NCBI GenBank assembly: GCA_038727095.1 | Contig: JAVYWK010000006.1 | Span: 11,235 to 75,234 of the forward strand | Direction of reading: 5' to 3' | DNA: 64,000 nucleotides | From: Thermofilaceae archaeon | Lineage (GTDB): Archaea; Thermoproteota; Thermoprotei; Thermofilales; Thermofilaceae | Shown: piece after piece, positions 772 through 28,275 of the stretch | How positions within the stretch are numbered: position 1 is the stretch's first letter | Layout of the letters: each line of letters opens with the position of its first letter | The notes under the pieces: model-generated | Told to the model about the DNA's origin: nothing | Databases searched by the model: none | Seen by the model: the letters and a program-made list of their open reading frames with translations, nothing else | Translations under genes and position numbers: made by a program

Positions 772-3021
772 TTAAACTGTGGGTGTGCGCACTTGGGTTT
801 TTCGGGAGGCCCAGTCTGTTCTCGCCTCCTCGACTGGTTCGATCTCGACGAGTATGTTGTAGGGCTCATGCCCTCTCCTGAGAACCGCTCGACCTACGAT
901 CCCTGCTTGGAACCACGATAGTTCGATGGGGGTTAGGGCCATGTAGACCTGCGTCATAGATACGTAGTCAGGGTCGCTGTGAGAGAGAGCGAGCTTCCAG
1001 CCCGCAACCCTCCTAAACGCCTCAGGTACGTCGCCCCACTCGTGGGTGAGCATGACGACTGCCAGCCCAAACTTCCTCAGCATCCTCGCCATCGTGACGA
1101 TCAGAGGCTCCGTGTAACCTGGAGGGGGAAGCATGAAAAGGTGACCTTCATCAACGATGAGCAGCCACCTCGGCTCACTCAAGCCACGAGCTATGGCGCA
1201 GTCGCGGAGCTGAGATAGTAGGAGGTCGAACACGACCCTCTGCACCTCTACCGGCATTGCCGTGTAGCTCCCCTTCGCTGTGCTACCCATACAGAGTACA
1301 AACGGCTTGCCCGCTGAGATGAGATCTTCTAAGCTGATTTCCTCTCCCATGAAGTAGTCCTGAAGCCTCTCCAGCTTCCACTCAAGGCTCGTACCCCTCG
1401 CAAGCTCCACTAGCTGTTGGAAGCTCGAAACCCCCCTTGCGAGGCACCTCCTCAGCAGGTGGGCCTCGTACTCGCTAAGCGGGCTTAAGTACGTAAGCGC
1501 TCTCTCAAAGTCGCTGGCGCTGCAGAGGAGCGGGTTAAAGGGTCGGTCCCAAAGATCCAGTATCTCAAATTCGAACTTCTCGGCGAAGGCCCTGTACTCC
1601 CCCGAGGGGTCGACTATGATCGGGGTGATCCCCTTCTCCATCGCCCTCAGCGCGAGGGTTCGGGCCGTGGTGCTCTTGCCGGAGCCCATCGGACCCACGA
1701 TCAGCCCGTGCACGTTCTCCAGCAAGTCCAGCTCCAGCCAAACCTCCTCGTCCCTCCTCACGCCCCGACCCAGGTAGATGGCCCTCGGCGTCCTCCTTGT
1801 GCGCGGTCTAAAGAATGTGTAGGGGGCCAACCAAGCGAGCTGGCAGCTGATCTTCACTTGAGAATCTTTTAGCGGGTAGCCTACTAAAGTGGTAAGCCGC
1901 TTGAGCGTTCGTGGTCTTCCCACTAGGGACACCAGCGAGAAGTCTCTTTCAAGCCCTAGCGGCTCGTAGCGCCACACATCACCGCTAACGAAAATCGCAA
2001 CCGAGAAAGGTTTGGACCCCCCCTCAAGAGCGCGGTTCATGTTGATCACGTTTAGGGCCTTAAACTCGTCAGCTAGCTTGCTGACTCCTGCTCTACCTGC
2101 TTCAAGCACTTCAAGCGCCCTCTTGACGCTGGCTCCGAAAGTCGCCAGGTCTTCCGGGACTAGGAGAGCTAGCAGGGAATCATCGCTCCACGTGAAGGCG
2201 CTAGCAAAGCTCCTCACAATGGATGCGGCTCCAGCCTGGTCAGGTACTTCCGCGATGCTGTACCTCAAAGGCATCAGGGTCTTCGGTGCTAAGAGGCAAC
2301 GTCCACCTCTCACTATCCTCAGCTCCAGCGGAATTAGTGGCAGAGGTATCAGCGCCAAAGGCGCGAGAGCCGGGTATAGCACGAGGGAAAGCGTTAAGGT
2401 TCCCAGCATTAGTACGCTAAACATGGGTAGAGTGGGATGGAAATTCCTCTCATTTAATTCGGCGACCGCGGAGAGAACTTCGAGAGGTTCAACGGGCCTT
2501 GTGCGAACGCCTAAACCTAACAAGCGGCGCTGTAGTTCCGCCAGCACATGCGGCACGCTCTTCAGAGCTTCAACCGCGGATTCCGGTAGTACAAAGTTTA
2601 TCTTCAGGTAGTAATTACGCAAACCGTTATCGGAAGAAGATACGATATTCACAGTCGCTGAGGGAAGGTACAGTGAGGATACGAAGTGGGTGGCCATCTC
2701 GCCCAATCTCACATCGCTCTCCGGTAGATCTACACTATCTACCTTCAAAAAGGCAGATAATACGTAACCTCTTCTTGTTTTTAACATTATGTAATCTTTT
2801 TTAACTTTAACCTCGGTGATGGGGTCTAGAAGCAAGCTTTTTTCTCCGTAAACCAGTTCGATGAGCTCAACTCTCTTAGTATAGATGTAGTAGCCCCCCA
2901 GTATCAGAGCTAGGATAGCGGGAGGTAGGACTGTTCTACCGGCTATAGCCGCAATCAGGGCCAGCATCATCGCGAAGAAGAGAATGATCGCTGAAGCTCC
3001 CGGTAGGTACACGCCGCTCAC
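772..3021 (-). CDS. cedB: VirB4/HerA-FtsK family ATPase with N-terminal membrane segments (CedB/TedB-like DNA-transfer ATPase)
   Basis: Walker A GPMGSGKS, IVDPSGEY, Walker B LLIVDEGH and RKFG motif, with hydrophobic helices in the N-terminal third. It is the last gene of an operon with CedA-like genes. Start is at GTG 3021 or GTG 3012 (GGAGGTGA SD). Confidence 0.8.
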   Translation of the reverse strand: MSGVYLPGASAIILFFAMMLALIAAIAGRTVLPPAILALILGGYYIYTKRVELIELVYGEKSLLLDPITEVKVKKDYIMLKTRRGYVLSAFLKVDSVDLPESDVRLGEMATHFVSSLYLPSATVNIVSSSDNGLRNYYLKINFVLPESAVEALKSVPHVLAELQRRLLGLGVRTRPVEPLEVLSAVAELNERNFHPTLPMFSVLMLGTLTLSLVLYPALAPLALIPLPLIPLELRIVRGGRCLLAPKTLMPLRYSIAEVPDQAGAASIVRSFASAFTWSDDSLLALLVPEDLATFGASVKRALEVLEAGRAGVSKLADEFKALNVINMNRALEGGSKPFSVAIFVSGDVWRYEPLGLERDFSLVSLVGRPRTLKRLTTLVGYPLKDSQVKISCQLAWLAPYTFFRPRTRRTPRAIYLGRGVRRDEEVWLELDLLENVHGLIVGPMGSGKSTTARTLALRAMEKGITPIIVDPSGEYRAFAEKFEFEILDLWDRPFNPLLCSASDFERALTYLSPLSEYEAHLLRRCLARGVSSFQQLVELARGTSLEWKLERLQDYFMGEEISLEDLISAGKPFVLCMGSTAKGSYTAMPVEVQRVVFDLLLSQLRDCAIARGLSEPRWLLIVDEGHLFMLPPPGYTEPLIVTMARMLRKFGLAVVMLTHEWGDVPEAFRRVAGWKLALSHSDPDYVSMTQVYMALTPIELSWFQAGIVGRAVLRRGHEPYNILVEIEPVEEARTDWASRKTQVRTPTV

Positions 3022-6000
3022 CTCCTCAAAAGGCGGAGGTTGTCCTCCACCCAAATGCTTAGTTTAACATAGTAACCAATAATTTTAACTGCAACTCTTT
3101 GCCACCGCTCAAGCGCATCTAGGAGATCTGCGCTTTCAGGGCGAACGCTCCTGCGTAAAGCCAACTTTAAGTCGGAGCATTCGGCTAAAAGAGCTTCTAT
3201 CGTTTTAATTGCAATGATCAAGCTCTGATGTAGACCCTCCAACCGACCTATGAGCTCCCTTCGCTCAGCTTGAGCCTCAGCAGCTAAAGCAACACTCCTA
3301 CCGGGTGGGGGCAGGAGCCCGTAGTGCTCAACCGATTTTAACCGCTCATCGACCTCAACGAGCGTGTTCGCGAGCTCTCGGTACACTCTTTCAAGGAAAC
3401 CACCCGCAGAACGCACCAATGCTTGATCCTCGAAGAGCGGCCTAAGTCTCCTAACCGCAATTTCGAATATCTCTCTCACGAGCGCCTCCGCTCCTCCCTG
3501 TTTTTCGGAAAGAGCCGCAGCCCAACCAGCCCAGTACATGTCACCGCTAAGGATCAACGCATCTACCGCGCCGCTCAGATCCATGTCCCTATCCCCCCGC
3601 AGAGCATCCGCGTAGCCTTGCAGGAAGCGTGTTGCTTGCTCATCAACTCCTTCATCCCTCAGAGCATTACTGAGGTCAAAGCTCGTGACCCCTCTCGCCC
3701 ACATGCTTGCAACTTCGAGCAGTAAGCTCTTGACCTCAGGGTGAAGACGCGGAAGGAACCATGGCTCCCTACCCTCGGCTAGCTCGCTCGCCGCTCTTAT
3801 GAGCAGGTAGCGCCAAGGTTGGTTACGCTCAAGCGACGTAAGCCATACCGCGCCCAGATCCGTTTCAAACCCCCTTTCTCGACTTACTCTAGATAGGGTG
3901 GTGGCTATGGCTTCCCACCACGCTGTTCTAACCACGGAATCACCGATTGCCGCCTTATCTGCGATTGAAAGCGCAGCTGCCGGATAACGCTCGAGTAGTT
4001 TGAAAAACTCTTTTCGAGTGAAACCCTCTGCGGCAGCTAGTCCAATGATCCTGGCGGCGAGCTCCTCCACCGATCCAAAGGACGCTCCTCCGAGGTAGCG
4101 ATCGTATCTGGCTATAAGGTGCGGGCGTTGCGACGCAAGACGCTCGAGCTTGGATAAGCTCCTTGAAGGATCACGCCCCGCGAGGACATCGCGCGCAACT
4201 GCCGCGAGGTACTTCTCGAACTCCAACTTGGGCTTCTTCATCCTCCTCAAATCTCCTTCCGACATTTCCTTCGGGTAGAGTAGGTGATAGCCCCTAACGA
4301 AATGCTTTGTGTAACGAACTGTTTGAGTTAACGTTCCGAGCCGAGCTTCGAGGAGTAGCGAAGCTGCGTAAAGGGTATCGCTAGCAATGATGAGCTTCCG
4401 CGCTACAGGGTCAGTTAGAGCTAGACGGAGCTTCTCAACGTACGGAACGTACAGCCGCACTCTGCTTAAGGCGGTTCTTTCCGCTACTTCGCTTGCAACT
4501 CGAAGCAGTGCAGGCAAGGGGTGGAGACTGTGGTACCTCGACCATGCCTGAAAGAGCTTTGCAGTCGCTCTTCTGAGCCGGCTACGTCGGTGGTCTAGAC
4601 CCCTTCTGAGCTGCTCTATGCTCATCCGAATTTCTACGGCTGGATCGAGAGCCGTGAGGATCAGAGGCTCCCTCAAGCTTCGAGGATCGTGCCCGAATTT
4701 AACCGTGATAGCGATCTCCATAAACAGCGATGTAAAACTCCTACCAATCTGCTCAAGATTATAGAGCGTTGAGCGCAGCGGCTTCAATATTGGAGGGAGA
4801 TGGAGTGCGCCGAAGCCTCCAATGACACTGGACAGGAATGCTGTTGCGACTACCACGGCGAATAAAAGAACGGCTAACTGGGCTAATAGACCAACATGCT
4901 CTAAAAGGGAGGCTGCGCTGATTCTTAAGCGTTCAGCCACGGTACCGTTGAGGATCGGTTCGAGGTCCCCATCGTATAGCAGGCCCGCAATTACGCTTTC
5001 GTTCATTAGGGTAAATGCTGACAGAGCGCGCTCAGCTGGGCACCTTTCATCCCCACTTAGGAGCGAGAGTATAACCTCAAACCTTTCCGGTGGAAAACCG
5101 GATTTCGCAGGCCCAATGACAGCCGGTTCTACGAGATCCCCGTAGTACCTAGCATGCACAATAACTTTGGGAACGTTAGACCTGGGCCAGAGCGATCTAG
5201 AGTAGAAGACGCTTCCGTCGACCTCAGCAGCTTCAATCATCCCTCTACCGTAAAGGCAGACTTTCACTCCACTGTAGTTAGTTAAAGGTGGCATGGAGGC
5301 ATTAATCAACCGGGCCCATTGATCGAACCATAGGGCTTCGATCGACCTAGCGTCGGGGAGTGATGGTTCAACGTAGCTGATCTCGCAGCTTAAAATAGGT
5401 TCGAGTTCAACGATTTCATTGCCTACTTTCAACCTGCTCATACCCTTCTTTAGAACAGTCGGTATCCCATTTTCGCATATAGCATTAAAATCGAAGTGCC
5501 CCTCAATCCGAGCAGTTACTTCTATGAACTTTACATTAATATCAACTATTTCTCCAGATGATAATCTGATCTTTATAGTTTCATTCCCTTCCCTCCATTC
5601 ACAATAGCTTGGATGAAGAATAGCAACTATCTGATGATCACTAAGAAAGTTACTTACGTTGTACCATGGTAGCGGGCCGGTAAACCTCTCTGAACCGTCA
5701 AGAACGAAGAAACCTCTAGCCCTCCAGTATCCCCATCCTTTTCCTACATCCGTTGCATCATAGAATAAAACCAAAGCATCCTCTGAAGCGCTCACATTTA
5801 CGGTGACCCATGTAATATTTTCTACGTGAACTTTACACTCAGGCACCGTTCCTGGCAACCCATCACATGCTACCTTTAGTTGAGCCCCCTTCTCCGGCCT
5901 GAACGTAGTTTTTAATACCGGCAGCCAGTAACCAGCGTAACTAACGCCCAGCGCAACATAATCTGAATCTCTTTCCAGGTACCATTGACCGAGCGGGCGA

Positions 6001-7573: not shown

Positions 7574-7580
7574 ATCTACC

Positions 7581-7973
7581 TCAGGGCCTACTGAAAATCT
7601 CGTTCCAGTTTACGGCAAAGGGTGTTCCCTGTGGTAGCAACCCAATTGCCACCAGTATATCCGGCAACCAGGCTGCGAAAGCTAGCGCAATTAACCAATA
7701 GAGGGGACCTTCAAGCGCTTCTATGAGCTCTCTTTGCGCTGTGGCAGTTGATAACGCGCCTCCCAGTTGTTTTCTTAGTACTGCAAGCGCGCTTTTTATG
7801 AAAGCTGTTACAAAAATTAGTATGCCCGTCGCCGTCACCGTTATTTTGACTGCTAAAACCGAGTAGTTTCTTACTGTATCCCAATTCACGGTAGGCCCTT
7901 GCGCCTGAACAAGTTCGGTATAGAGAACGACTGTAGTAAGGAGAATGGATATGATTTTGCTATATTTTGTCAT
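7581..7973 (-). CDS. VirB2-like conjugative-type pilin (CedA1/TedC-like)
   Basis: 130 aa from ATG 7973: Sec-type signal peptide ending VQA/Q, then two hydrophobic helices joined by a short basic loop. First gene of the cedA/cedB-like operon. Confidence 0.6.
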   Translation of the reverse strand: MTKYSKIISILLTTVVLYTELVQAQGPTVNWDTVRNYSVLAVKITVTATGILIFVTAFIKSALAVLRKQLGGALSTATAQRELIEALEGPLYWLIALAFAAWLPDILVAIGLLPQGTPFAVNWNEIFSRP

Positions 7974-8114: not shown

Positions 8115-8444
8115 TCATACTCTTCGAATAATGACGGTAAAGTTAATGTGTGAAATCGTCAGCCGAAACTTGCCGCTAAATAGAGTAGTTTTGTTAGCTA
8201 CTGGTATTTTTACAGCTATGTTACACCCATCATGGAAAAGTCCTGTTTCGTTCACCACTACCCGGTCGAGAGTGAATGTGTCCACCACCCACCCCCTCGA
8301 CTGGTTCACCGCGAGTGCTGCCGCTGCGAGCCTTCTCGCCTCGCTGCAGTAGTCCGGCTGCTGCCTCAGCCTCGCCGCCGATAGCGCCGCGAGGACCGCG
8401 GCCGCAACCGCCAAGTATAGGAGGAGCCTCTCCACCTCAGCCAC
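8115..8444 (-). CDS. Small pilin-like/membrane-anchored protein
   Basis: N-terminal MAEVE plus hydrophobic helix, two Cys, beta-rich C-terminus with several N-glycosylation sequons. Confidence 0.6.
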   Translation of the reverse strand: MAEVERLLLYLAVAAAVLAALSAARLRQQPDYCSEARRLAAAALAVNQSRGWVVDTFTLDRVVVNETGLFHDGCNIAVKIPVANKTTLFSGKFRLTISHINFTVIIRRV

Positions 8445-8889
8445 CCTTTCGCGCTCCTCTCTCGCTTCGCTGGGGGTAGTAGGTGCCCATGTAGTAGAAG
8501 TCGTCCCTCCCCATCCTCCTGAGGAGCGTGATGAACACCTCTACATCGTCGGTGAGGCGGAATTTGAAGCCCGCAGGAGCGTAGTCTCTCGCGTGAACCT
8601 CGGCGTAGTAGAAGCCCTTCGGCAGCACCACCTCGAGCCGGCAGTACCTTGCCCCCCGATCCCGCCTCGCCCTCCCGGTGTAGGCGAGCCAGGCGGGCAT
8701 CTCCCAGTCGTCGTACTCCGGGAACTCCTCCTCGAGCTTCTTCACCACCTCCTCCCACTTCCTCCTCACCTCCTCCGGAGTCCCCTCAACGGGCTCGAGG
8801 AACCAGATCTTCACCCAGGTTCTCTTCGGCCTGGATTCGAAACCCACTTCGAGGCGTAAGCGGGCGTACCCCTCCCGCACCCTAACCAC
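8437..8889 (-). CDS. Hypothetical soluble protein in minor-pilin operon
   Basis: 150 aa with overlapping start/stop to both neighbours and GC3-biased codons; no recognisable motif. Confidence 0.6.
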   Translation of the reverse strand: MVRVREGYARLRLEVGFESRPKRTWVKIWFLEPVEGTPEEVRRKWEEVVKKLEEEFPEYDDWEMPAWLAYTGRARRDRGARYCRLEVVLPKGFYYAEVHARDYAPAGFKFRLTDDVEVFITLLRRMGRDDFYYMGTYYPQRSERGARKGG

Positions 8890-9604
8890 CCCTGTGGTGC
8901 ACTGGGACTATCACGCCCCACTCGTCCCTCAGCTTGTAGACGTAAAAAGCTGCCGGAGCTGGAGGGGGCCCCGGCGGCGGGGGGATCGCGGCGGAGAAAT
9001 CCCTCGGAACAGCGATTAGCCACTCGCAGCTTGAAGGATCGAACGATAGGAAGTCCGCATACCCTTGGGGGTCCGCGAGCTTGGGGCAGAGGCTCGCGTT
9101 GAAGAAGGGCGTGGTGTAGCTGTTGCTGTACCTCAACCGAACCTTCACCATCGTTACGGTCTTCAGGGAGCCGCTGACCACTACAGTCTTCGTGTAGGTG
9201 CCCTCCTCCCCCAAGCCCTCCACCCTCGCGTAGTAGGCCACGTACTCAGCCCCCACTGGTGTAGCGAGCGCAAACTTCAGCCCGTACTCAGTCACCCAGC
9301 CCTGCCCGCTCCTCACCGTCCTGTTCAAGAGGTTGTCCGCGGCGCAGGGCGAGAACGTAGGATACATGCGGAGCGGCTCACTCCGATTGAAGCCGGCGAG
9401 GATGGTGAGCAGGCTCTGCATCCTGCTACAGTCGCAAGCTCCGGAGAAGCACGTTCTCGCCAGGTGGATGAGTTGAGCGGCCTGCAGGTGGCCGCGCTCG
9501 TACGCCACGTAGGGGTTCGGGGTCCTTATCGCGGCCAGCGCGATCAGCGTTGCTGCGAGTATAATGACGCCGATCAACGCGAGCTGACCCCTCCTCTTCC
9601 TCAC
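8882..9604 (-). CDS. Type IV minor pilin-like protein with class III signal peptide
   Basis: (M)RKRRG/QLALIGVIILAATLIALAAI: basic leader, Gly cleavage site and hydrophobic helix, followed by a Cys-containing extracellular domain. Confidence 0.7.
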   Translation of the reverse strand: MRKRRGQLALIGVIILAATLIALAAIRTPNPYVAYERGHLQAAQLIHLARTCFSGACDCSRMQSLLTILAGFNRSEPLRMYPTFSPCAADNLLNRTVRSGQGWVTEYGLKFALATPVGAEYVAYYARVEGLGEEGTYTKTVVVSGSLKTVTMVKVRLRYSNSYTTPFFNASLCPKLADPQGYADFLSFDPSSCEWLIAVPRDFSAAIPPPPGPPPAPAAFYVYKLRDEWGVIVPVHHRGG

Positions 9605-9615
9605 TCCCACACCAC

Positions 9616-9939
9616 CTACGGCGTAGCGCATACTCTCACGACCCTGTAGCCCGCGGGCTCGAAGAAGACCACAGCGTAGCAGATCGCTGTCCCCCCAGCC
9701 CCCTCTTTGCCAGCCTTCAACTCTCCGTCAACGTAGACCGCGGCCGCGTGCTCCCCCAGAGCCTGCTGGATTAGGTTCGTGAGCTCGTCTGTATCCCTCG
9801 CGTTGAGAAGTGCCCAGGCTAGAGCCCTCTGAGCTGAGGCGTGGTGCACCGGAGCAGCCTGCTGAGCCGTCAGCGAGACCATGTAGACCGCCGCCACTGC
9901 GAACACCAGCCCGATCGCGGCAGCCTCCAAGTGCCTCAT
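9616..9939 (-). CDS. Small minor-pilin-like protein (probable paralogue of 18384-18701)
   Basis: MRHLE plus hydrophobic helix; the C-terminal G..G...CYA.V....G...V pattern is shared with 18384-18701. Confidence 0.6.
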   Translation of the reverse strand: MRHLEAAAIGLVFAVAAVYMVSLTAQQAAPVHHASAQRALAWALLNARDTDELTNLIQQALGEHAAAVYVDGELKAGKEGAGGTAICYAVVFFEPAGYRVVRVCATP

Positions 9940-10268: not shown

Positions 10269-10778
10269 GTGGAGGTCTTCAAGGTTCACAAGGGCGGGGG
10301 CGAGCTGGTCCTCGTCGCGGGCGAAGCGTGCGGCGAGCTGAGCCAGTTCTACATCCTCTGCCTCTCCCCGCGCTGCTCCCTTGTCGCGAAGAGGGATGGG
10401 CTGGTCTACGCCTACAGGCTGCTCGACCCCGCCGAGTCTCGGGAGGTGCGGGCCCTGCTGGAGCGCTTGAGGAATAACGGGTTGAGCGCGGGCGATGTTC
10501 GAGCGCTAGTGGCCTCTCTGCTCTCCGCGGGCTGCGCAGAGTGGGGTAGGCGGGACATGCCCGTCTACCGCTTCGCCTCAACGGTGGTTGAGGTTTCACC
10601 GCCCCGCAGGCCGAGGCGCTTGCTGGTTAAGACCGCCAGCCCGAGGGTTGTTGAAGCGCTGCGGGAGATGGGGGCGTGCTGGATGCCCCTCCACAGGGCG
10701 TGGCTGGTTGAGGCCGTGGACTGGCGCGGCACGGTCGAGAGGATCAGGGGGCTGGCCGAACGGGGGCAACAATCTTAG
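10269..10778 (+). CDS. Hypothetical protein with C-terminal HARP/DUF5710-like domain
   Basis: VVEALREMGACWMPLHRAWLV resembles the K.lGa.W....k.W.v motif of HARP/DUF5710 domains; TATA (TTTATA) ~25 nt upstream. Confidence 0.55.
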   Translation: MEVFKVHKGGGELVLVAGEACGELSQFYILCLSPRCSLVAKRDGLVYAYRLLDPAESREVRALLERLRNNGLSAGDVRALVASLLSAGCAEWGRRDMPVYRFASTVVEVSPPRRPRRLLVKTASPRVVEALREMGACWMPLHRAWLVEAVDWRGTVERIRGLAERGQQS

Positions 10779-10834
10779 CGGGCTGCACATAGCTTTGGGG
10801 TCGCGCTAGGATTAAATAGCATTTTGCGTACGTT

Positions 10835-12307
10835 GTGGTGATGAGGAGGGTCATACTAGCTGTAAGCGTAGCGGTGCTGGCGGCTGCTGTAGCGCTCCTC
10901 TTTCACTTCAGAGGGCTGCAGGGCGTGGGAGCCGCGGGCCAAGGCACCGGTCAAGGGAGCGCGAAGATCACCTACCTGCTGAGGCTTGAGGTGGAGGGTG
11001 CTGGCAGGCTGCTGGTGAACGGTTCTTCGCAGAGCATCGTGGAGTCCACGAGGCCCTTCACCGCTCTAGTCGAGGCCGTTCCTGACGCGTGCTATGTTTT
11101 GAGGCGGCTGCTCGTGAACGGAACACCGGTTGAGGGCTCCAGGGTTTTGCTCGAGGTTGGGGGTAACACGACTGTGAGGGCGGTCTTCGAGAGGCCGGTT
11201 TACACCGTCATGATCGAGGGGAACGCGACGGGTGCCGGCGTGGAGGTGAATGGCACCGAGCACAGTCTTCCGGCCCTGCTCACCGTTAAAGCCTGCGAGG
11301 TGCTCACTGTGACGCCGGTGGCTCCTCCGCGCTACTACCCGCTCAACGGGTCCCTGACGATCAACGTCACCGGCGACGCGAGGCTGAGGCTCCTCTTCAG
11401 GAGGTGGCTGGTGAAGCTCAGCCTCCAGAACCTCGCGTACCCGGCGAGGGTGAACAACGCCCTCTACAACGGGAGCGCGGAGCTCGAGCTCGCCGCTGGT
11501 AGTGTCAGGGTGGAGACGCTGAGGGCAAGGTGCCTGCTCCACAACGACACCCACCTAGTCTGCCCGGCCGGCTGGCTAGCGAGGCTGGTGGACTGGAGCC
11601 TCAACGGCACTACGGAGCTGGAGCTCCCCGGCAACTTCACCCTCAACCTGCTCGGAGACACGGTGCTCGAGCAGAGGGTCTCCTACCTGAAGCTGAGGGA
11701 CCCCGTCGTCAGAGTGCAGGTGCAGACGCCCAGCGGCCCCTTCACCGCCAGAGCGATCCCCGGCAGCCGGTGGGTCGGCGAGTACATCGCCTGGATCTAC
11801 TCCGGGAAAGTCGAGGCGGTTGAGGGGGGTTGGTTGAAGCTGGAGGGGCACGCCGTCATCGCCTTCCTCGAGCTGCCGAAGGGCTGGGGTAGGGTCAGAG
11901 TCTACGCGAAGAGGGTCTCCCCCCTCGGGAGCAAGGACACGTACATTGAGGTTGTCCTGAGGAACGACGTGGTCTACCACAGCTTCGGTGTGGCTCTGCC
12001 GCCCACCTGCTTCTCCCGGGGTGCGGGCTACGACCGGCTCGAGAGCTACACGGTGCTCACCATCGACAGCGGCGTGATGGACCTGGGCGGGAGGTGCATC
12101 ATATGCAGCTGGCTGCTGGACGAGGCGAAGAAGTTCTTCAGGGTGGAGCAGGCCTGGTGCAACACCGAGCCCGAGTGCTGCAAGGTGGAGTGGTCGGAGA
12201 GCGGGCCGGGCACGAAAACCTTCAGCGACGTTGAAGCGGGCTGGCTCCACATAGCCACGGAGGGGACGCTCCTCATCAAGGTGGAGGTCGTCGAGTGGAG
12301 GAGGTAG
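10835..12307 (+). CDS. Membrane-anchored surface glycoprotein with divergent InlB-B/PEGA-like beta repeats
   Basis: N-terminal hydrophobic anchor, repeated G.G.l.VNG...A.P...Y......NG...V.G...v.avF units, many NGS/NGT sequons and a Cys-rich C-terminal domain. Confidence 0.7.
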   Translation: MVMRRVILAVSVAVLAAAVALLFHFRGLQGVGAAGQGTGQGSAKITYLLRLEVEGAGRLLVNGSSQSIVESTRPFTALVEAVPDACYVLRRLLVNGTPVEGSRVLLEVGGNTTVRAVFERPVYTVMIEGNATGAGVEVNGTEHSLPALLTVKACEVLTVTPVAPPRYYPLNGSLTINVTGDARLRLLFRRWLVKLSLQNLAYPARVNNALYNGSAELELAAGSVRVETLRARCLLHNDTHLVCPAGWLARLVDWSLNGTTELELPGNFTLNLLGDTVLEQRVSYLKLRDPVVRVQVQTPSGPFTARAIPGSRWVGEYIAWIYSGKVEAVEGGWLKLEGHAVIAFLELPKGWGRVRVYAKRVSPLGSKDTYIEVVLRNDVVYHSFGVALPPTCFSRGAGYDRLESYTVLTIDSGVMDLGGRCIICSWLLDEAKKFFRVEQAWCNTEPECCKVEWSESGPGTKTFSDVEAGWLHIATEGTLLIKVEVVEWRR

Positions 12308-12340
12308 GGAATAAATACTAGCTCTTCTCTTTCTCTCCGC

Positions 12341-14857
12341 GTGAGCGGGCTGAAGCTGCTAGCCCTGCTAGCGCTGCTGGCACTGGCACTGCTGACCGCG
12401 ACCGCTCTCGCCGAGAGCAAAACCTGCCAGGACAGCAAGGAGAGCGAGCACGTCTGGGAAACAACGGATAATGTCAAGCAGCGTACCGTCTCTAAGACGG
12501 CGTCGTACAGTTGCTCGGTGAATGTTGTGGGTGGTGGGAGGGTGGCTGTTGGGGGCTCTTTCCAGGTCAGCGCTACCGTCTACGATGCTACTGGCTACGC
12601 GCAGTGGGACTACTATGTGGGGACGAGCCACTCGGTGGGGGGTCTCGGCTGGAGCTTCAGCGACAGCAGCGGCGACCAGACAGTGCTCACGCGGACGTCG
12701 ACCAGCAAGGTAGTCTGGCACTCGGGGAGTGAGAGGAGCTTCAACTTGAACAGCTGCACAACCCTCTCCCCCAGCGGCAGCACTCCGGGCACCTCCACCA
12801 TCACCGTGAGGCGCGCGGAAGCGTGGTTCCTCGTCCTCGCCAGCGCGACAGTAGAGGGGACCAGCTGCGGCTCACCGCCTCCACCGTCACCCCCGCCACC
12901 ATCCCCGCCGCCCCCGTCGAGCTACACCCTCACCATCCAAGTGTACAGGGCGACCGCCAGCGGAGCTACAACCGTGCCGGCGAACGGGACCAGGGTCAGG
13001 ATCGGCGGCACCACGTACACCGCCGACTCGAGCGGCAGGGTCCAAGTTACGCTGCAGCAGGGGAGCTACAGCGTCGAGATCCTCGAGACCTACTACGGCC
13101 CCACTCTGACGGTGGGAGGGCTGACAACGAACTGGCGGCGCTACCGGTTCTGGAAGTGGAGCGATGAGAGCACCAGCAACCCGAGAGACGTCAGCTTGAG
13201 CAGCGACACCACTCTCACGGCCTACGTCTGGGACGAGAGGGCTCTGCTGGTCCGGTGGGAGCCCCACTTCAACGGCGACGCTTGGGGCGTCGCGTTCGCG
13301 ACGAGCGGGGCGCGCATAACCTACGACACCGTAGTATGGCTGAAGAGGGGTCAGACCGTCCAGCTCCTACCGGTAGAGGCTGGAGGCGCGATCTTCACCT
13401 ACTGGCGCGTCGGCACCGAGTGCTACAGGGGTCAGCCCTACAGCAGCGACCCCCTGCTCACGCTGACGGTGGGCGATAGGGGCCTGTCCGCGATCGCGGT
13501 CTTCAGGCTCGCGGCGACGAACCAGACGATGCTCCCGCCGGGCGCCGGTATGGTCAACCCGGTCACCTACATCCCCGGAGCAACGATGGGGGGTGAGGAG
13601 CGGATGGGAAAGAGGGGCTGGTGGCTGATGACCGTCACCCACGTCCCGACGGGCAAGACCTCGCCTGACGAAGCGGGCGTCGACGGGAGGGCCTGGATCT
13701 ACGCCCTGATAGTGAACGAGAACGGGAGCAGCAGGTGGGTTCCTGTAACAGGCGTCTGGAGGCTGCACCTGGCGCAGGACTGGTCTCAAACCCTCTCCAG
13801 GCACGTTAAAGATCTGCCTGGGGGTGTGAAGATCATCGAGTGGAACCGGAGCACGGTCGCAGGGTTCCCCAAGATCCAGGATCCGCAGGAGTGGAGGGAG
13901 TGGTACTTCGTCACTCTCTCGGCCTGGGATCCGCTGGTCTACGAGGAGCTCGGAGGGAGCTACGACACCAGCGGCTTGTGGCTCGCCAACGGCAGTACCC
14001 TGGCTCTGTACAACATCACCTTCGCGTACATGGGCGTCTCCGGGAACCGGGTGGAGTACGTCTACTGGCAGCCCATCGCGGTCTCCACCCTGACCTTCAG
14101 GGCTGAGGCACGCTACACCCTGACGGAGCATGAAGCCGCGCCGCCCGGTAGGCGCAGCATCCTCATGAGCATCTACGTGAACGCAACCTGGAAGTACGTG
14201 CCGCCCCAGTACTGGCAGCTCCTCGGCTTTAGGGTTCATGCTCCGCAGCTCGGCTTCCTCGCCTCCCTCGAGGAGCCCGGTTGCACCGGCACCTTCTGCA
14301 TCGGCTACTGGGCCCCGCCCTCGCAGGCCGGCTCGACCTGGAGGCTGTACGTCATCGGCCTCGGCGACACGGAGGACTTCTACGCGAAGCCGTACCCGAG
14401 GGGCCTGCTCGGCGGCGACGGCTACAGCAGCGTGAGGGAGTTCAGGATCTCGATGAGGTGGATGGGCGCCGGCGGCAGGCCGTCGACCCTCGTCTGGGGC
14501 AGCGATAGGGTTACATTCAAGCTGGCGCCAGCCTCGGTGTACAAGCTGGAGTGGACCGACCCCCGAGGCCCCTTCACGGTGACGTGGGGCTGCTTCGCCC
14601 AGGGGCCCTGGGGCCTCACGCCCATCTCCTCGTACACGGCGGACTTGACGTTCGACTGGGGCGCTACGGGTAGCACGCACCCGCTTAAAGGCACGCAGCG
14701 CTTCAACGGTGTTACCTCACCATACACCGTGAACGTGCAGGTCCCGGCTGACGACTGGATCGCCTTCTACGTGGTACCCGCTGGGGGGAGGTACGCTATC
14801 GCGGAGGGCGAAGTAGTGCCAGTACCCGTCTTCGCCAAGTACCCGCCGAGAGGCTAG
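12341..14857 (+). CDS. Large secreted adhesin-like surface protein with Pro-rich linker
   Basis: Signal peptide, Ser/Thr-rich N-domain, (SPPPP)3 linker, one copy of the ~180-aa module also found in 15485-17773, and a Trp/Tyr-rich C-terminal region. Confidence 0.75.
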   Translation: MSGLKLLALLALLALALLTATALAESKTCQDSKESEHVWETTDNVKQRTVSKTASYSCSVNVVGGGRVAVGGSFQVSATVYDATGYAQWDYYVGTSHSVGGLGWSFSDSSGDQTVLTRTSTSKVVWHSGSERSFNLNSCTTLSPSGSTPGTSTITVRRAEAWFLVLASATVEGTSCGSPPPPSPPPPSPPPPSSYTLTIQVYRATASGATTVPANGTRVRIGGTTYTADSSGRVQVTLQQGSYSVEILETYYGPTLTVGGLTTNWRRYRFWKWSDESTSNPRDVSLSSDTTLTAYVWDERALLVRWEPHFNGDAWGVAFATSGARITYDTVVWLKRGQTVQLLPVEAGGAIFTYWRVGTECYRGQPYSSDPLLTLTVGDRGLSAIAVFRLAATNQTMLPPGAGMVNPVTYIPGATMGGEERMGKRGWWLMTVTHVPTGKTSPDEAGVDGRAWIYALIVNENGSSRWVPVTGVWRLHLAQDWSQTLSRHVKDLPGGVKIIEWNRSTVAGFPKIQDPQEWREWYFVTLSAWDPLVYEELGGSYDTSGLWLANGSTLALYNITFAYMGVSGNRVEYVYWQPIAVSTLTFRAEARYTLTEHEAAPPGRRSILMSIYVNATWKYVPPQYWQLLGFRVHAPQLGFLASLEEPGCTGTFCIGYWAPPSQAGSTWRLYVIGLGDTEDFYAKPYPRGLLGGDGYSSVREFRISMRWMGAGGRPSTLVWGSDRVTFKLAPASVYKLEWTDPRGPFTVTWGCFAQGPWGLTPISSYTADLTFDWGATGSTHPLKGTQRFNGVTSPYTVNVQVPADDWIAFYVVPAGGRYAIAEGEVVPVPVFAKYPPRG

Positions 14858-14913
14858 CGCTAAACAGCGCTAAACAAATAAATACGATCATTTTTCTCTT
14901 CTTGAGGAGCCTA

Positions 14914-15495
14914 ATGGTGCCTCTGAAGTACCTGCTAATCGCTCTAGCCTTGGTGGCCGCCACAGGCCTAGTTACAGCCTTCCTGCAGAGGGTCTTCACG
15001 AGGAGCGAGCCGCTAATGGGCTGGGAGGACGCGCTGGAGCTCCGCAGAGCGTTGAGCGCTGGTAGGGCTTCGCTCACCTTCACCGCCTACGCCGCCGAGC
15101 TCCCCTTCACGGTGAACGTGACGCTCGACGGCAGGCTGTACTGGCTCCCCCTGAGGAGGGTGCTGGTCTACTTCAGGGCCCGGGACGCCCCCGTGTTTGA
15201 GGAGCCCCTGCTGCAGCTTTGGCGCGCTTGGGGCAACGGGACGCACGCTGGCGCAGCCTCAGCCCTGGATATCAGCGACGACGGCTCAACCATCTACATC
15301 AAGTACCTGGCCTTGAGCAGCGGTTTCCCGAGTAGGGGTAGCAGCTTCTGCCTGGGGCAGGGTGCCGAGGATCCCAGCTACGGTTTCTCCTCCCAATCGG
15401 GCGGCAGGGTGGACGTGCTGGGCGCGAGCTACGAGTGGAGCGGCCGGAGGCTGGTGAAGGTTGTCAAGATAGAGGTGGTCCAGTGTGGCGGTTGA
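14914..15495 (+). CDS. Minor pilin-like membrane-anchored protein
   Basis: MVPLKY plus hydrophobic helix and a beta-rich body; overlaps the start of the following adhesin gene. Confidence 0.6.
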   Translation: MVPLKYLLIALALVAATGLVTAFLQRVFTRSEPLMGWEDALELRRALSAGRASLTFTAYAAELPFTVNVTLDGRLYWLPLRRVLVYFRARDAPVFEEPLLQLWRAWGNGTHAGAASALDISDDGSTIYIKYLALSSGFPSRGSSFCLGQGAEDPSYGFSSQSGGRVDVLGASYEWSGRRLVKVVKIEVVQCGG

Positions 15496-17773
15496 TGAGG
15501 CTCTCGTTGTTCTAGCGGAGGCCATACTGCTCGCAGGCCTCCTTATGTTTTCGGCGAGGTTGTGGAGCGCCAGGTTCGACCCCTACCCGCAGCTGGTCGC
15601 CCAGCTGCTGAACAGCAGCCCGGTTGACGCAGAGCTGTTCATCGCCCTGCCGAAGCCTGTGAGGGTGGAGCTGGACAGGCTGTGCCAGGCGGGCTCCTGC
15701 TACAGCATAGCCCCTCTCGGGGCCGTCTACGGCACAGCGTGGGACTGGCTGATCGTCTACAAGCGGAAGGCCGCGTTAGCTGGAGGGGGTGTACCCCCTT
15801 CACCCTACGCTTTGCTGGCGGTGCAGGTCCGGAGGGTGAACCACGCTGGAAGCGATCTGGGGCCCGTTCAGGGCGTGCAGGTGAGAATCATGGGTCAAAC
15901 GTATGTCACGGGTGCTGGGGGCTGGGTGAACGTGACGCTCGTGAAGGGCTACACCTACACCGTTGAGGTGTTGCAGACCGGTTTCAATAATGGTTGGGGC
16001 CGATACTCGTTCTACAGGTGGGGTGACGGTTCAACGGAGAACCCGAGGAACATCCTCCTCAGCGATAGCGTGCAGCTGCTCTCCTACGTCTGGGATGAGC
16101 GGTTGCTCAAGGTCACCTACACCAGCGGCGGTGTCGTGAGGGTGGACGGCTCCCAAGTCTCCAGCGGCTGGACCTCGTGGCGCAAGTACGGCTCCACAGT
16201 GGTTCTGCAGGCTGTGCCGAACGCGGGCTACTACTTCCAGAAGTGGCAGAGGGGAGTTAACAGCGACTCCATTACCGACTACTCGACCTCTAACCCCATC
16301 ACCGTTACCGTGGACAACGGCTACCGGTTCCACGCCGTCTTTGACGCCTTGAAGTGGCTGACTGTGCAGGTCTACCGGGTGGATAAGGCAGGAAAAAGCC
16401 TGGGTGGGGCAGCCGGTATTCAAGTCAGGGTTGATGGCAACAGCTACACCGCCGACTCCAACGGCGTCGTCAAGGTGCAGGTGGTTCCCGGTACGCACAC
16501 GGTCGAGATCGTTCAGACGAGCTTCAACGGCGGCTGGGGGAGGTACACGTTCTGGAGGTGGTGGGACGGCAGCACAGCGAACCCGAGGACCTTCACCGTC
16601 GCTGCGGACGCGACGGTCACAGCGTACGCTTGGGATGAAAGGCTCCTTAAGATTACTTACACCAGCGGTGGAGCTGTGAAAGTGAACGGTACGCAGGTCT
16701 CGAGCGGTTACACAACGTGGTGCAGGTACGGCACCGTTGCGACCCTAGAGGCTGTACCGAGCTCCGGCTACCAGTTCGTCAAGTGGCAGAGGGGAGTGAA
16801 CAGCGACTCCTTAAGCGATTATTCTACGTCTAACCCCATCACCGTTACCTTGGATAACGGCTACAGGTTCCACGCGGTCTTCGGCACCACCTACACGTTC
16901 ACTGTCGAGGTGAGGAGGGTCGATTACGCGGGCACCGACATCGGCCCAGCCGTTGCAGCCGTCGTTGTCGTGAACGGGCAGAGCTACACGACGGACAGCA
17001 GCGGTAGAGTAACCTTCACCAACGTTGCACCGGGAGCGAGCTTCACTGTGCAGTTCAACCAGCAGACCTTCAACAGCGGCTGGGGGAGGTACACCTTCTG
17101 GAAGTGGTGGGACGGCAGCACAGCGAACCCGAGGACCTTCACGGTTACCTCGGACGCTACCGTGACGATGTACGTCTACGATGAGAGGCTGCTGAAGGTG
17201 AGCTACGACAGTAGCGGGGTCGTGAGGGTGAACGGTACGCAGGTCTCGAGCGGCTGGAGCAACTGGTACAGGTTCGGGGTTAGAGTGGTACTGGAGGCTG
17301 TGCCCAACTCGGGCTACGTGCTCCAGAAGTGGCAGCGCGGAGTAAACACGGATACGCTGAGCGACTACGACGTGAGGTTGAGGGAAACGAGGAGCGCGAG
17401 CGGGAGCAGCGAAGTAGTGGCGGTTGTCACTAGCAACGCTTACACCGGGTACATTGAGGCAACAATGAGCTACACATCACCGGGCGGAAGAATGGGCATC
17501 TGGATGGCCCTAATCGAGGCGTGCCCCACCTCCGCGTGCTACCAGTCTCAGGTGCTCAATTCGACTAGTTGGAGGACTGGCAGCGGGAGCGGCACGCTCA
17601 CCTACAGAGGCACGCTGCAGGCGAGCAGGTACATACGTTTCACGCTAACCGCTCCAATGGGCTTCACCGGCATCGCCTCCTTAACCGGAACCGTTTTGAG
17701 ACCGGCAACCAACCCGCTGTTAGTAACCATGGACAACGGCTACCACTATCGAGCGGAGTTCGGAGCTCCGTGA
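15485..17773 (+). CDS. Pilin-like adhesin with three tandem ~180-aa beta-sandwich repeats
   Basis: MAVDE plus hydrophobic helix and a small Cys-containing domain, then three repeats sharing GWGRY.F..W.DGST.NPR, WDERLLK, KWQRGVN and DNGY. Confidence 0.8.
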   Translation: MAVDEALVVLAEAILLAGLLMFSARLWSARFDPYPQLVAQLLNSSPVDAELFIALPKPVRVELDRLCQAGSCYSIAPLGAVYGTAWDWLIVYKRKAALAGGGVPPSPYALLAVQVRRVNHAGSDLGPVQGVQVRIMGQTYVTGAGGWVNVTLVKGYTYTVEVLQTGFNNGWGRYSFYRWGDGSTENPRNILLSDSVQLLSYVWDERLLKVTYTSGGVVRVDGSQVSSGWTSWRKYGSTVVLQAVPNAGYYFQKWQRGVNSDSITDYSTSNPITVTVDNGYRFHAVFDALKWLTVQVYRVDKAGKSLGGAAGIQVRVDGNSYTADSNGVVKVQVVPGTHTVEIVQTSFNGGWGRYTFWRWWDGSTANPRTFTVAADATVTAYAWDERLLKITYTSGGAVKVNGTQVSSGYTTWCRYGTVATLEAVPSSGYQFVKWQRGVNSDSLSDYSTSNPITVTLDNGYRFHAVFGTTYTFTVEVRRVDYAGTDIGPAVAAVVVVNGQSYTTDSSGRVTFTNVAPGASFTVQFNQQTFNSGWGRYTFWKWWDGSTANPRTFTVTSDATVTMYVYDERLLKVSYDSSGVVRVNGTQVSSGWSNWYRFGVRVVLEAVPNSGYVLQKWQRGVNTDTLSDYDVRLRETRSASGSSEVVAVVTSNAYTGYIEATMSYTSPGGRMGIWMALIEACPTSACYQSQVLNSTSWRTGSGSGTLTYRGTLQASRYIRFTLTAPMGFTGIASLTGTVLRPATNPLLVTMDNGYHYRAEFGAP
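15809..17763 (+). repeat. Three intragenic tandem repeats of ~540 bp (approx. 15809-16345, 16352-16885, 16892-17763; the third carries an insertion)
   Basis: Near-identical DNA blocks: gtggtgggacggcagcacagcgaacccgaggaccttcac in units 2 and 3, and aagtggcagaggggagt in units 1 and 2. Confidence 0.9.
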
Positions 17774-27434: not shown

Positions 27435-27450
27435 CTCGGGTGACCCATTT

Positions 27451-28269
27451 GTGTCTATACTCGCTGACTCGATACTCGAAATCCTCGAGGAGAAGGGACA
27501 AGTAGCTGTTATCGGAAGTCATCCCGGGTTTAGAGAGAAAGTTATCGCTAATACGATCCAAGCCGCCGCTAAAGCTTATGGAGTGATCGCGGTCATTGAT
27601 TGGTACGGAGCGTACAACGTAGATGCGATACAAACTGTTGAGCCGACTTTACCTTACAGTAGCACAGCAAAATACCTCCCGCTCGCCGTCTCCTCAATGC
27701 ACGGCCTCTATAGGATTGGAGCATTAGTAGAGGGGCTTGTGTACGAAGCTGTGCAAAGTTCCGATAGTTTCCACCAAGTAGTATCGCGACTCGAAGCTCT
27801 TTCTACACGAAGAGTTTGGGCGCGCACGATCCTTTCAAAAATAGCGCTATTGAAAGATTATTTTGTAGAAAACATCATCCTACCGACTAAGTTTCGAGTA
27901 AACCTATTCAAGGCGCCGGTTTTGATCAGACGCCCCCTTTCTCAGCTTTGGGTAGCTCTCGTAAGTGAAACAGTAGCAGCGCAGAAAGGTTTGCTTGTTG
28001 TGAGTGAAGCTGGACGTGCGATTAAGCGTGGCTGGTGGGTCTGGAGTCTCATCGACGATGCTAGAGTAAGAGGGGCTAGGGTTTTACTAGCCGATAGTCG
28101 TCTCCTTAGAGCCTACCTGCAAAACGCTCTTGTTTTCACGGATTACAGGCCTGAAGAAGCACTGGCGGCACAAAGGTATAGGTTGCAAATACTGACTAAG
28201 AAGTGGGTGAAGGGGAAAGCCCTGCTGGTTAAAGATCCTGAAGAACCACGCTTACTCAATATAGAGTAG
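27451..28269 (+). CDS. Inactivated HerA/VirB4-like P-loop ATPase homologue
   Basis: VAVIGSHPGFREK (decayed Walker A), VIAVIDWYGAY (cf. VIDxHGEY), LLVVSEAGR (decayed Walker B) and ARVRGARVLLA (cf. gRKxG). Confidence 0.55.
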   Translation: MSILADSILEILEEKGQVAVIGSHPGFREKVIANTIQAAAKAYGVIAVIDWYGAYNVDAIQTVEPTLPYSSTAKYLPLAVSSMHGLYRIGALVEGLVYEAVQSSDSFHQVVSRLEALSTRRVWARTILSKIALLKDYFVENIILPTKFRVNLFKAPVLIRRPLSQLWVALVSETVAAQKGLLVVSEAGRAIKRGWWVWSLIDDARVRGARVLLADSRLLRAYLQNALVFTDYRPEEALAAQRYRLQILTKKWVKGKALLVKDPEEPRLLNIE

Positions 28270-28275
28270 AGAATT

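Follow-up and report, generated by a model that had tools for sequence, protein, structure and literature searches.

Known systems closest to the locus

Exchange of DNA in Sulfolobales uses two separately described systems, the Ups pili for contact and the Ced system for import, and Ced needs the Ups pili (Beltran 2023, PMC9905601). To the question of how contact, channel, and DNA processing are coupled, a set of contiguous genes gives a concrete gene list. The subject of this work is such a set, a block at positions 772-28269 of a 64,000-nucleotide stretch from a Thermofilaceae archaeon (GCA_038727095.1, contig JAVYWK010000006.1; C6:11235-75234 of genome G000, which comprises 1.86 Mb in 52 contigs and is 92% complete). 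This whole stretch is called the window, and all positions refer to it unless another contig is named. The block consists of three gene groups, namely a Ted/Ced-like core, a type IV pilus (T4P) cassette, and a set of partition-type (Par), winged helix-turn-helix (wHTH), and HerA-like genes.

According to the accessible text of the papers concerned, the Ted system occurs in five Thermoproteales genera, at loci that also carry ParA/MinD, HerA-like, and Rad50 genes, and a term search of the same text returns neither T4P, ParB, nor Thermofil- (Beltran 2023, PMC9905601). TedC has a Sec signal peptide, unlike CedA1; TedD has since been reported, and ParA and Rad50 have been flagged for future study (Schult 2025, PMC11823120). 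On the Ced side, the CedA paralogue CedE is essential for transfer, a ParB-domain nuclease forms part of the transfer model for Sulfolobales, and VirB4 and CedD are recorded in Thermofilales (Wu 2025, PMC11868833). Complex T4P systems of Thermoproteales, with a MinD/FleN ATPase and extra membrane proteins, have also been described, with mention of Thermofilum loci, in a survey that predates Ted and whose main text, as accessible, uses neither "ParB" nor "conjugat" (Makarova 2016, PMC4858521).

A conserved supercluster of two units

The block is best explained as a conserved chromosomal supercluster of Thermofilaceae and neighbouring families, in which two evolutionary units stand back to back. 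One, the Ted-like core, is best seen as a domesticated, relaxase-less relative of conjugative secretion systems of type IV (T4SS), containing a giant second VirB6 paralogue, here called Big, with a large extracellular and a large cytoplasmic part. The other is best seen as a complex T4P system to which a ParA/MinD ATPase, a ParB, and a small winged-helix protein of its own belong. A first-pass annotation, made from the sequence alone, had proposed a single locus in which contact, transfer, and DNA positioning are linked into one DNA-exchange system. The physical linkage is real, conserved, and accompanied by a shared gene string; the single unit does not hold, in that the locus is a composite of a Ted-like core and a separable, Par-bearing pilus module.

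The linkage was examined in 41 genomes (the window's own and 40 relatives) searched with TedB, the T4P ATPase, and ParB; in addition, a TedB profile was run on 120 genomes of the class, and about 600 kb of fetched loci were read by tblastn. Ten of the 41 genomes combine a full-length TedB orthologue with the T4P ATPase and ParB, and in seven of these ten the three lie on one contig within 7.7-27.9 kb (26.7 kb in G000, 27.9 in G003, 21.2 in G009, 21.0 in G014, 7.7 in G010, 22.4 in G030, and 20.1 in G025), which bears out, across families f1, f2, and f4, the expectation that the modules are linked in related genomes. The remaining three (G002, G004, and G035) have the three genes on separate short contigs that end at the edge of the pilus part. 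Wherever a contig is shared, the three are never far apart. G001 has TedB and ParB, with no T4P ATPase match at 1e-30.

Gene order inside the block varies among relatives. The one-strand order g08-g07-(g06)-g05-TedC-TedA-Big-TedB recurs in G003, G009, G014, G010, G030, and G025, and in the last five it is part of a longer string that opens with g12-g13N. The minor-pilin-like genes and the Ted core form one overlapping gene string: in the window, the four genes at 8115..9939 overlap or abut one another and run into the Ted core.

Comparison with described systems

Like Ted loci as far as these are described in the accessible text (PMC9905601), the core is chromosomal and relaxase-less, has a candidate VirB2-like pilin with a Sec signal adjoining a VirB6-like protein and a VirB4-like ATPase nearby, and is accompanied by ParA/MinD and HerA-like genes. 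The Thermoproteales-type locus read here, too, has a very large membrane protein immediately upstream of TedB. There are also differences: TedB alone shows a sequence-level link (24-26% identity across its ATPase domain), whereas the pilin and channel families of the window have no detectable profile similarity to the TedA and TedC candidates of that locus; and the window has an embedded T4P biogenesis cassette, a canonical ParB, a wHTH gene, and minor-pilin-like genes fused into the operon. To our knowledge, no contact pilus is known for Ted systems.

With Ced and Ups (van Wolferen 2016, as cited), the window shares the combination of a contact-type T4P with a VirB2/VirB6/VirB4-like importer, the presence of two VirB6-type paralogues (CedA and CedE there, the TedA-like protein and Big here), and a ParB-domain protein, which figures in the published transfer model as far as the accessible text gives it. 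In Sulfolobales, however, the two systems are separate and UpsC lies outside the ups operon, whereas the window genes are contiguous and partly co-operonic; one VirB4-like protein replaces CedB and CedD, the pilin has a signal peptide, and the ParB is Spo0J/Noc-like with a helix-turn-helix (HTH). The T4P part resembles, in the accessible description, the clade 4G/Thermofilum T4P (PMC4858521): both have a diverged ATPase (with a TadC there and a candidate platform here), a number of minor pilins that evolve fast, large proteins of adhesin or S-layer type, and an ATPase of the MinD/FleN family, besides small helical proteins of the cytoplasm and additional membrane proteins.

Among bacterial T4SS, likenesses are seen in a VirB6 domain with a large extension, as in the extended VirB6 of Rickettsiales, and in a ParA-type ATPase beside transfer genes (VirC1), insofar as the sources at hand describe these; in contrast, the window has no outer-membrane core, no VirB8/9/10, no VirD4 with an intact P-loop, and no relaxase. 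In IncP plasmids, the IncC-KorB-KorA set pairs a ParB-family protein with a small HTH partner, as the window does with ParB and the wHTH protein, and the thin (type IV) pilus of IncI plasmids serves mating contact. The first-pass annotation knew of no description of the architecture. A full-text search found no paper in which, for Thermofilaceae, ParB and a T4P cassette are tied to a Ted-type core, although supplementary locus tables may list some of the genes; the parts, as far as the accessible texts go, are in print (Beltran 2023, Makarova 2016, Wu 2025). Two components are not named in the accessible text of the cited papers, the giant VirB6 paralogue beside TedB and the pilus-tied ParB-wHTH pair.

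The Ted-like core

The gene at 772-3054, taken at first sight for VirB4/CedB-like, is a VirB4/CedB/TedB-type membrane-anchored ATPase. It matches Pfam DUF87 (7.5e-9, 36.4 bits; cut-off 23.2) and AAA_10 (1e-5), full-length orthologues are present in relatives, and a ten-sequence profile of the TedB family (A3) finds VirB4 4ag5, a C-terminal domain, as its best PDB match (2.2e-13). The NCBIfam matches to VirB4_plasma (7.9e-11) and CedB (6.6e-8) lie far under their cut-offs, and the curated CedB, CedD, and VirB4 equivalog cut-offs are all unreached, leaving membership at the superfamily level. A scan of the genome contigs with a pattern from the TedB alignment gave 599 matches, none of them confirmed. 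A second HerA-like ATPase of G000 (contig C9) was considered as TedD and set aside, its matches to HerA (2.5e-37) and CedD (3.3e-21) both falling far under the cut-offs.

The open reading frame (ORF) of Big extends to 6881, and its likely start is 6782, where orthologue starts align at M34; this start overlaps the stop of the gene upstream. Big has no Pfam family match, but its N-terminal 300 residues (A6) align by hhalign with the TedA-like family (A5) at a probability of 83.8% and E 7.8e-6, over 81 columns that include an RRLG motif. Because of this alignment, Big is probably a second, extended VirB6-type protein and a paralogue of the channel protein. A protein of 832-1772 aa lies between the TedA-like and TedB-like genes in every locus examined.

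The region 6779-7973 had been read as CedA/VirB6- and VirB2-like, and this stands in part: structural likeness to VirB6 is present, but that to CedA1/TedC is weaker. The 264-aa protein is a VirB6/CedA/TedA-like multi-pass protein at the fold level. Its family is rare (42 representatives at E <=1e-3 among 1.84 billion), and one of 33 scanned members matches NCBIfam Ced_CedA (E 0.0055). The adjoining pilin-like protein, whose ORF extends to 8093 and whose start is fixed by six orthologues, has a signal peptide with an invariant Ala ahead of (Q/E)GP, followed by two long hydrophobic helices. Its model is a two-helix hairpin (pLDDT 78), for which the CedA1 pilus 8dfu_B ranks third and the TedC pilus 8dft_A 23rd among 48,161 PDB representatives, ranks that are tied with many unrelated hairpins; Foldseek with the same model found nothing (best E 0.99). 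A complex prediction for the TedA-like protein and the mature TedC-like pilin scored 0.00 without controls and has no bearing either way. The 141-aa TedC candidate of the Thermoproteales-type genome G090 likewise has no relevant PDB match.

The type IV pilus cassette

A T4P machine with pilins and adhesins had been proposed for the middle of the block, and its ATPase, its pilins, and the Flg_new_2 repeats of an adhesin-like protein are confirmed or supported, whereas the platform protein is a lead only. The ATPase at 23326-24870 matches PF00437 (T2SSE; 60.3 bits, 1.7e-16, cut-off 24.9) and, in NCBIfam, TadA-like (3e-17) and FlaI (2.2e-9) families. A public search with it returned nine loci, six of them archaeal, the closest being metagenome-assembled genomes (MAGs) of a Thermofilaceae archaeon and a Thermofilum sp. 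In G004, the match to the orthologue (G004:C12:1819-3161) is split between two frames, one covering query residues 55-293 and the other 279-510, possibly a frameshift or an assembly error. For the platform candidate, Pfam T2SSF is matched in none of seven orthologues; in the protein atlas, 10-21% of members bear T2SSF in 28 of the 30 named clusters closest to it.

The major-pilin candidates at 20213-21126 give sub-threshold matches to Arch_flagellin (6.8e-4) and BasC (1.6e-4). The class III motif was found by scan in 20650-21126, 22387-22836, and 8882-9631 and by eye in 20213-20647, and a prepilin peptidase gene (Peptidase_A24, 41.4 bits) lies on another contig, so that predicted class III signal peptides and a prepilin peptidase occur in one genome. 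The gene at 15485-17773 matches Flg_new_2 (InlB B-repeat) at 5.1e-11 in three stretches, with internal repeats visible in tblastn, and is read as a putative pilin-adhesin fusion; its homologue in other genera consists of the N-terminal part of ~75-100 aa only. The first-pass annotation had also named a HARP-like gene and a dead recombinase, which find no backing, as 21162-21545, 21484-21834, and 21862-22386 match nothing in Pfam, NCBIfam, or PHROGs. The same three collections hold no match to 8437-8889, 10269-10778, 23084-23326, and 24906-25307.

The ParA, ParB, and associated genes

The genes called ParA and ParB are what they had been taken for. The KGGxGKT at 25332-26078 is the deviant Walker A of ParA; the protein matches AAA_25 (29.6 bits, cut-off 27), stays just under the cut-offs of AAA_31 and CbiA, and is far under that of NCBIfam ParA_partition (6.2e-7). 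Its gene and that of the 133-aa protein are co-directional with the T4P ATPase gene, with gaps of 24-35 nt. The protein at 26544-27434 has an N-terminal ParB/Srx domain and a central HTH, matching ParB_N PF02195 (42.5 bits, 6.7e-11; cut-off 26.3) and Spo0J 1vz0 (2.2e-19, residues 5-149), with TIGR00180 at 49.7 bits, under the cut-off of 58.45. It has no signal peptide and therefore acts in the cytoplasm.

Two further assignments are leads. The protein at 26163-26501 is weakly wHTH-like (Pfam HTH_45, 0.031; a PHROG regulator, 0.0053), without a relevant PDB match. The supposed dead HerA at 27451-28269 has an atlas score of 0.95 (184-189 of 256 features), all ten best named matches being HerA/DUF87/TrwB clusters, and in four of four orthologues the Walker A lacks GK[ST] while the Walker B hhhh[DES]E is retained; sequence searches of Pfam, NCBIfam, and the PDB match nothing. 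In the 84-nt spacer between ParA and wHTH, a 10-nt direct repeat occurs in two copies 19 nt apart (26076-26104); allowing <=1 mismatch, the window contains eight matches against 2.3 expected. The repeat may be a putative operator or centromere-like site. A role in segregation would need lineage-wide retention, and ParB is found in just 20 of the 41 genomes searched. In genus g7 it is present in three of eight genomes, the five without it being 99% complete; its occurrence follows that of the pilus cassette.

Chromosomal residence and mosaic history

The block is chromosomal and not a tRNA-integrated element, because it has no integrase, no att repeat, and conserved flanks. Sua5, tRNA-Arg, and a gene of glycoside hydrolase family 5 (GH5) flank it in G002 and G003, and tRNA-Arg and GH5, without sua5, stand at the ParB end in a second genus (G009 and G014). 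The early remark that no relaxase or intact integrase is visible holds: no such family occurs in any ORF scanned, although very divergent relaxases could escape; the recombinase PF00589 is present in one copy per genome, distant from the locus, in five of five genomes; and 13-mers of the tRNA region do not recur in the window, bar one inverted match in the adjacent spacer.

Base composition and amino-acid identity differ between parts of the block. GC is 0.49-0.53 in the Ted core, 0.48 at the Par end, and 0.58-0.65 over about 8-25 kb, against 0.48-0.54 in the flanks of that stretch; it is 0.41-0.51 over the whole locus of G003 and 0.61-0.66 in the cassettes of G010 and G020. The identities are given in Table 1. 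On the simplest reading of these sequence comparisons, roughly 8.1-24.9 kb (~17 kb) would have been replaced by a Thermofilum-type cassette, with the Ted and Par genes native.

Table 1. Amino-acid identity (%) of window-genome proteins (G000) to those of a genome of the same genus (G003) and of another genus (G020)
Protein	G003	G020
PheRS-beta (housekeeping)	65	53
NuoD-like (housekeeping)	68	47
Platform	80	92
g08	68	85
g07	53	83
g12	64	81
Third pilin	71	80
T4P ATPase	64	78
g05	48	76
Adhesin g11	60	73
ParA	67	65
ParB	70	59
133-aa protein	46	33

Variation is also seen at the strain level. G002 is 97-98% identical to G000 in two housekeeping proteins and has 93% nucleotide identity in the Ted core; yet a single pilin, 42-49% identical, replaces the two at 20213-21126 (L088 = G002:C2, 4268-6494), and its counterparts of 21162-21545 and 21484-21834 are separated by about 1.4 kb without alignment to the window. 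The two G002 contigs stop at 9284 and 15976 of the window. Contigs from metagenomes, long and about 99% alike along 772-8446, break up between 8.4 and 20 kb. One of them has an 11.3-kb deletion joint (8694 to 20026) with just 20 letters on its short side, which was not relied on.

Proposed working and alternatives

We are inclined to think that the T4P, the Ted core, and the Par set act jointly in DNA exchange, the reading that is best supported because of the synteny and the analogy with Ced and Ups. In this scheme, the T4P would establish specific contact between cells, in the way Ups pili serve Ced in Sulfolobales, with the strain-variable pilins and tip adhesins setting its specificity. 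The Ted pilus and channel would then move DNA, powered by TedB; ParA might position the machine or the DNA in the fashion of VirC1 or TadZ, and ParB with the wHTH protein could bind or mark DNA, or regulate the operons as KorB and KorA do. Strain-level replacement of pilins and a swap of the cassette across genera would fit a recognition (mating-type-like) role, which is relevant to how the barriers to gene exchange between archaeal species are drawn.

Several findings weigh against such joint action. Pilus modules stand without the Ted core in three genomes: in G020 (95% complete), ParB-ParA-133aa-ATPase-pilins-platform-adhesins-minor pilins have no adjoining core and run directly into housekeeping-looking genes (N-termini GTPase- and CDC48-like by eye); G024 (95% complete) has the full module, ParA, ParB, and wHTH included, and two profiles find no Ted genes in it; and G033 (85% complete) has ATPase, pilin, platform, ParB, and a small ORF at the wHTH position, no Ted genes, and no ParA in the stretch read. 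Because the module stands alone in these genomes, the Par genes belong with the pilus module and not with the transfer channel. Conversely, G020 has a second, compact Ted-like locus without a pilus cassette in the 20 kb read (L081 = G020:C2:100000-119999, 11589-18281), comprising 261-aa channel-like and 832-aa Big-like proteins, a VirB4-like protein split into a membrane/N-terminal part (357 aa) and an ATPase part (352 aa), and a divergent ParA. Similar matches occur at corresponding places in G010 and G021, and the other g7 genomes have a short ATPase match only, with a T2SSE paralogue ~7 kb away in six. The Thermoproteales-type locus of G090, where TedB is accompanied by a Big-like protein of 1772 aa, a HerA-like ATPase, a RadA-like gene, ParA, and five pilin-like genes of class III type, has no T4P ATPase within 40 kb. 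Membership in Ted/Ced is likewise not evident at the sequence level: 772-3054 scores 31.6 bits against the CedB cut-off of 700, hhalign gives probabilities of 0.3% for the channel family against the candidate TedA and 8% for the pilin family against the candidate TedC of a Thermoproteales-type genome, and the pilin- and channel-like proteins and their family profiles (A1, A2, and A8) have no relevant match among PDB sequences. The box II of ParB reads GRMRLEA, partly degenerate against the usual form GERRxRA, and CTP-dependent clamping by ParB would for this reason be uncertain. Finally, one metatranscriptome library yields contigs, 90-95% alike, that cover TedB and span the junctions of TedA with TedC (7117-7920) and of g06 with g07 (8609-9028), a weak hint of expression, but they are contigs of a relative, and DNA carry-over is possible.

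The modules that stand alone suit an arrangement of neighbours that are not partners, in which a self-contained adhesion or biofilm pilus with its Par genes and an independent Ted system are clustered in a variable surface-gene island. The history of the 8.1-24.9 kb cassette does differ from that of its flanks (73-92% identity to G020 against 47-53% in housekeeping proteins), as does its GC (0.58-0.65 against 0.48-0.54); G000 has several pilus systems (five T2SSE matches above the cut-off, four beyond the ATPase of the block); and complex T4P loci with a MinD/FleN ATPase have been presented without DNA transfer being invoked in the accessible text (Makarova 2016, PMC4858521). We nevertheless regard mere neighbourhood as somewhat unlikely, given that adjacency is kept in seven of seven testable genomes of three families despite internal rearrangements, that minor-pilin-like and Ted genes overlap in one string, and that a canonical HTH-bearing ParB and a HerA-like protein would be odd for a purely adhesive pilus. 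By comparison with this arrangement, a pilus-ParB module serving as a DNA-uptake (competence-like) or DNA-tethering pilus, with ParB and wHTH handling DNA and Ted as a second route, would account for the tie of ParB and wHTH to T4P genes even where the Ted core is missing, and in bacteria and some archaea DNA uptake involves T4P. The families found include no DNA-binding pilin, ComEC-like channel, or nuclease, however, and ParB is cytoplasmic, which makes an uptake or tethering pilus very improbable.

The block might also descend from an integrated conjugative element or plasmid whose mating-pair genes and plasmid-type Par set were captured next to a tRNA gene and whose integrase and relaxase were then lost. 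According to the accessible text of Abby 2018, there are archaeal integrative and conjugative elements (ICEs) that sit in tRNA genes and carry VirB4, VirB6, and VirB2. The block adjoins a tRNA gene, its genes are patchy (in g7, full-length TedB in one of eight genomes and ParB in three of eight), its cassette has been exchanged laterally, and the degenerate TrwB/HerA-like protein could be a dead coupling protein. The triad of ParA, small HTH protein, and ParB resembles plasmid partition or control modules, for which IncC-KorA-KorB and pNOB8 AspA-ParB-ParA offer comparisons. Such decay is nonetheless distinctly unlikely. Recombinase, integrase, relaxase, and att-like repeat are missing within the scans given above; the GC and identities of the Ted core fit those of the host; and there is no active VirD4/TraG coupling ATPase, the sole extra TrwB/HerA-like protein lacking the Walker A lysine in four of four orthologues. 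Because tRNA and GH5 flank the block in two genera, and sua5 does so in the window's own genus, the tRNA is a long-standing neighbour.

Joint action in DNA exchange can be taken further, to a hard-wired mating apparatus in which a laterally swappable, hypervariable T4P cassette, made up of pilins and a pilin-adhesin fusion, sets mating specificity, minor pilins are co-translated with the Ted conduit and physically prime it, a chromosomal ParB with the wHTH protein loads onto DNA, and a VirC1-like ParA hands this DNA to the VirB4-like motor. We consider this elaboration unlikely; if true, it would amount to relaxase-free conjugation of host DNA guided by a partition-type system. Complete Thermofilum-like genomes, one carrying the full locus (G010) and one just the pilus module (G020), would be natural comparison strains if cultures exist.

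Gene layout, boundaries, and neighbouring genes

The ORF map between sua5 and the tRNA resolves into four gene strings, A-D (Table 2), and TATA-like boxes lie ~20 nt 5' of the first start codon of strings B and D.

Table 2. Features of the block and its boundary genes, in order of window position, followed by the gene strings
Feature	Position	Strand	Basis or remark
sua5	2-769	-	PF01300 6e-64; boundary gene
TedB-like VirB4/HerA-family ATPase, 760 aa, N-terminal membrane segments	772..3054	-	DUF87, AAA_10, profile-PDB
Big membrane protein, about 1254 aa	3018..6782	-	start by orthologue alignment
TedA/CedA/VirB6-like polytopic membrane protein, 264 aa	6779..7573	-	fold level
TedC/CedA1/VirB2-like pilin, 130 aa, cleavable Sec signal peptide	7581..7973	-	orthologue-set start
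Minor-pilin-like	8115-8444	-	N-terminal hydrophobic helix only
Soluble protein, 150 aa	8437-8889	-	no recognisable family
Minor-pilin-like, RGQ class III-type motif	8882-9631	-	basic-Gly motif then hydrophobic helix (motif scan)
Minor-pilin-like	9616-9939	-	N-terminal hydrophobic helix only
169-aa protein	10269-10778	+	no recognisable family; first of divergent five-gene operon
Secreted protein, 490 aa	within 10269..17773	+	five-gene operon
Adhesin-like protein, 838 aa	within 10269..17773	+	five-gene operon
Pilin-like protein, 197 aa	14902-15495	+	N-terminal helix only
Pilin-like N-terminus with three ~180-aa repeats, 762 aa	15485-17773	+	Flg_new_2
Small membrane or pilin-like ORFs	17920-18927	-	no recognisable family
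Platform candidate, polytopic, 418 aa	18917-20173	-	protein atlas; between pilins and small pilin-like genes
Two major-pilin candidates, 144 and 158 aa	20213..21126	-	RKGG / VPPIVTV class III-type N-terminus
Small cytoplasmic proteins, 127 and 116 aa	21162-21545, 21484-21834	-	family unassigned
Third pilin, 149 aa	22387..22836	-	class III-type motif
80-aa protein	23084-23326	-	beside T4P ATPase gene
T4P assembly ATPase, 514 aa, PilB/FlaI/VirB11 family	23326-24870	-	PF00437
133-aa protein	24906-25307	-	no recognisable family
ParA/MinD-type ATPase, 248 aa	25332-26078	-	KGGxGKT Walker A
Small winged-helix-like protein, 112 aa	26163-26501	+	weak matches; divergent from ParA
ParB/Spo0J/Noc-type protein, 296 aa	26544-27434	+	N-domain and HTH
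HerA/TrwB-like P-loop fold, degenerate Walker A, 272 aa	27451..28269	+	protein atlas
tRNA-Arg(CCT) with insertions	28279-28394	-	Rfam 45 bits; boundary marker, outside the system
String A	9939 to 772	-	eight genes, overlapping or <=141 nt apart; end 2 nt from sua5
String B	10269 to 17773	+	five genes
String C	26078 to 17920	-	ParA, 133-aa protein, T4P ATPase, pilins, platform, small ORFs
String D	26163 to 28269	+	wHTH, ParB, 272-aa protein

Both boundary genes named at the outset, sua5 and tRNA-Arg, are sound. The tRNA was missed by ARAGORN in the window owing to its length and insertions, and its anticodon rests on the orthologous site of G009, where ARAGORN reads tRNA-Arg(CCT); a matching tRNA occurs at the matching site in G002, G009, and G014 and partly in G003. 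It is 116 nt long in the window and in G002, with inserted stretches at about 34-51 and 75-90, and 73-76 nt long without insertions in the genus of G009 and G014 (L031 3661-3736; L028 16235-16307).

In the divergent spacer of the two pilus operons, an 82-aa ORF (9971-10219, minus strand) without a Pfam match looks glutaredoxin-like by eye and has no CxxC motif. In the low-GC genome G090 (L066 7564-14918 and 15115-16266), the five large class III-motif proteins beside TedB are separated from it by a 383-aa ORF that is transposase-like by eye. A pilin set as a universal companion of Ted was considered and rejected, a class III regex cluster being found by TedB in one of three Thermoproteales-type genomes (G090, not G081 or G060).

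Just beyond the tRNA, the GH5 gene (28504-30738) encodes a secreted protein of the cellulase family of 744 aa with a DUF5060 N-domain, and it adjoins the block in G002, G003, G009, and G014 too. Farther along, 48179-56133 encodes a run of membrane subunits of Mrp/complex I-like type, three of them Proton_antipo_M proteins, as well as a large subunit resembling NuoD/NiFe-hydrogenase; these point to a putative membrane-bound hydrogenase or Mrp-type complex. Eleven hot-spring metagenome runs from five studies contain the window at about 70% of its sampled words.

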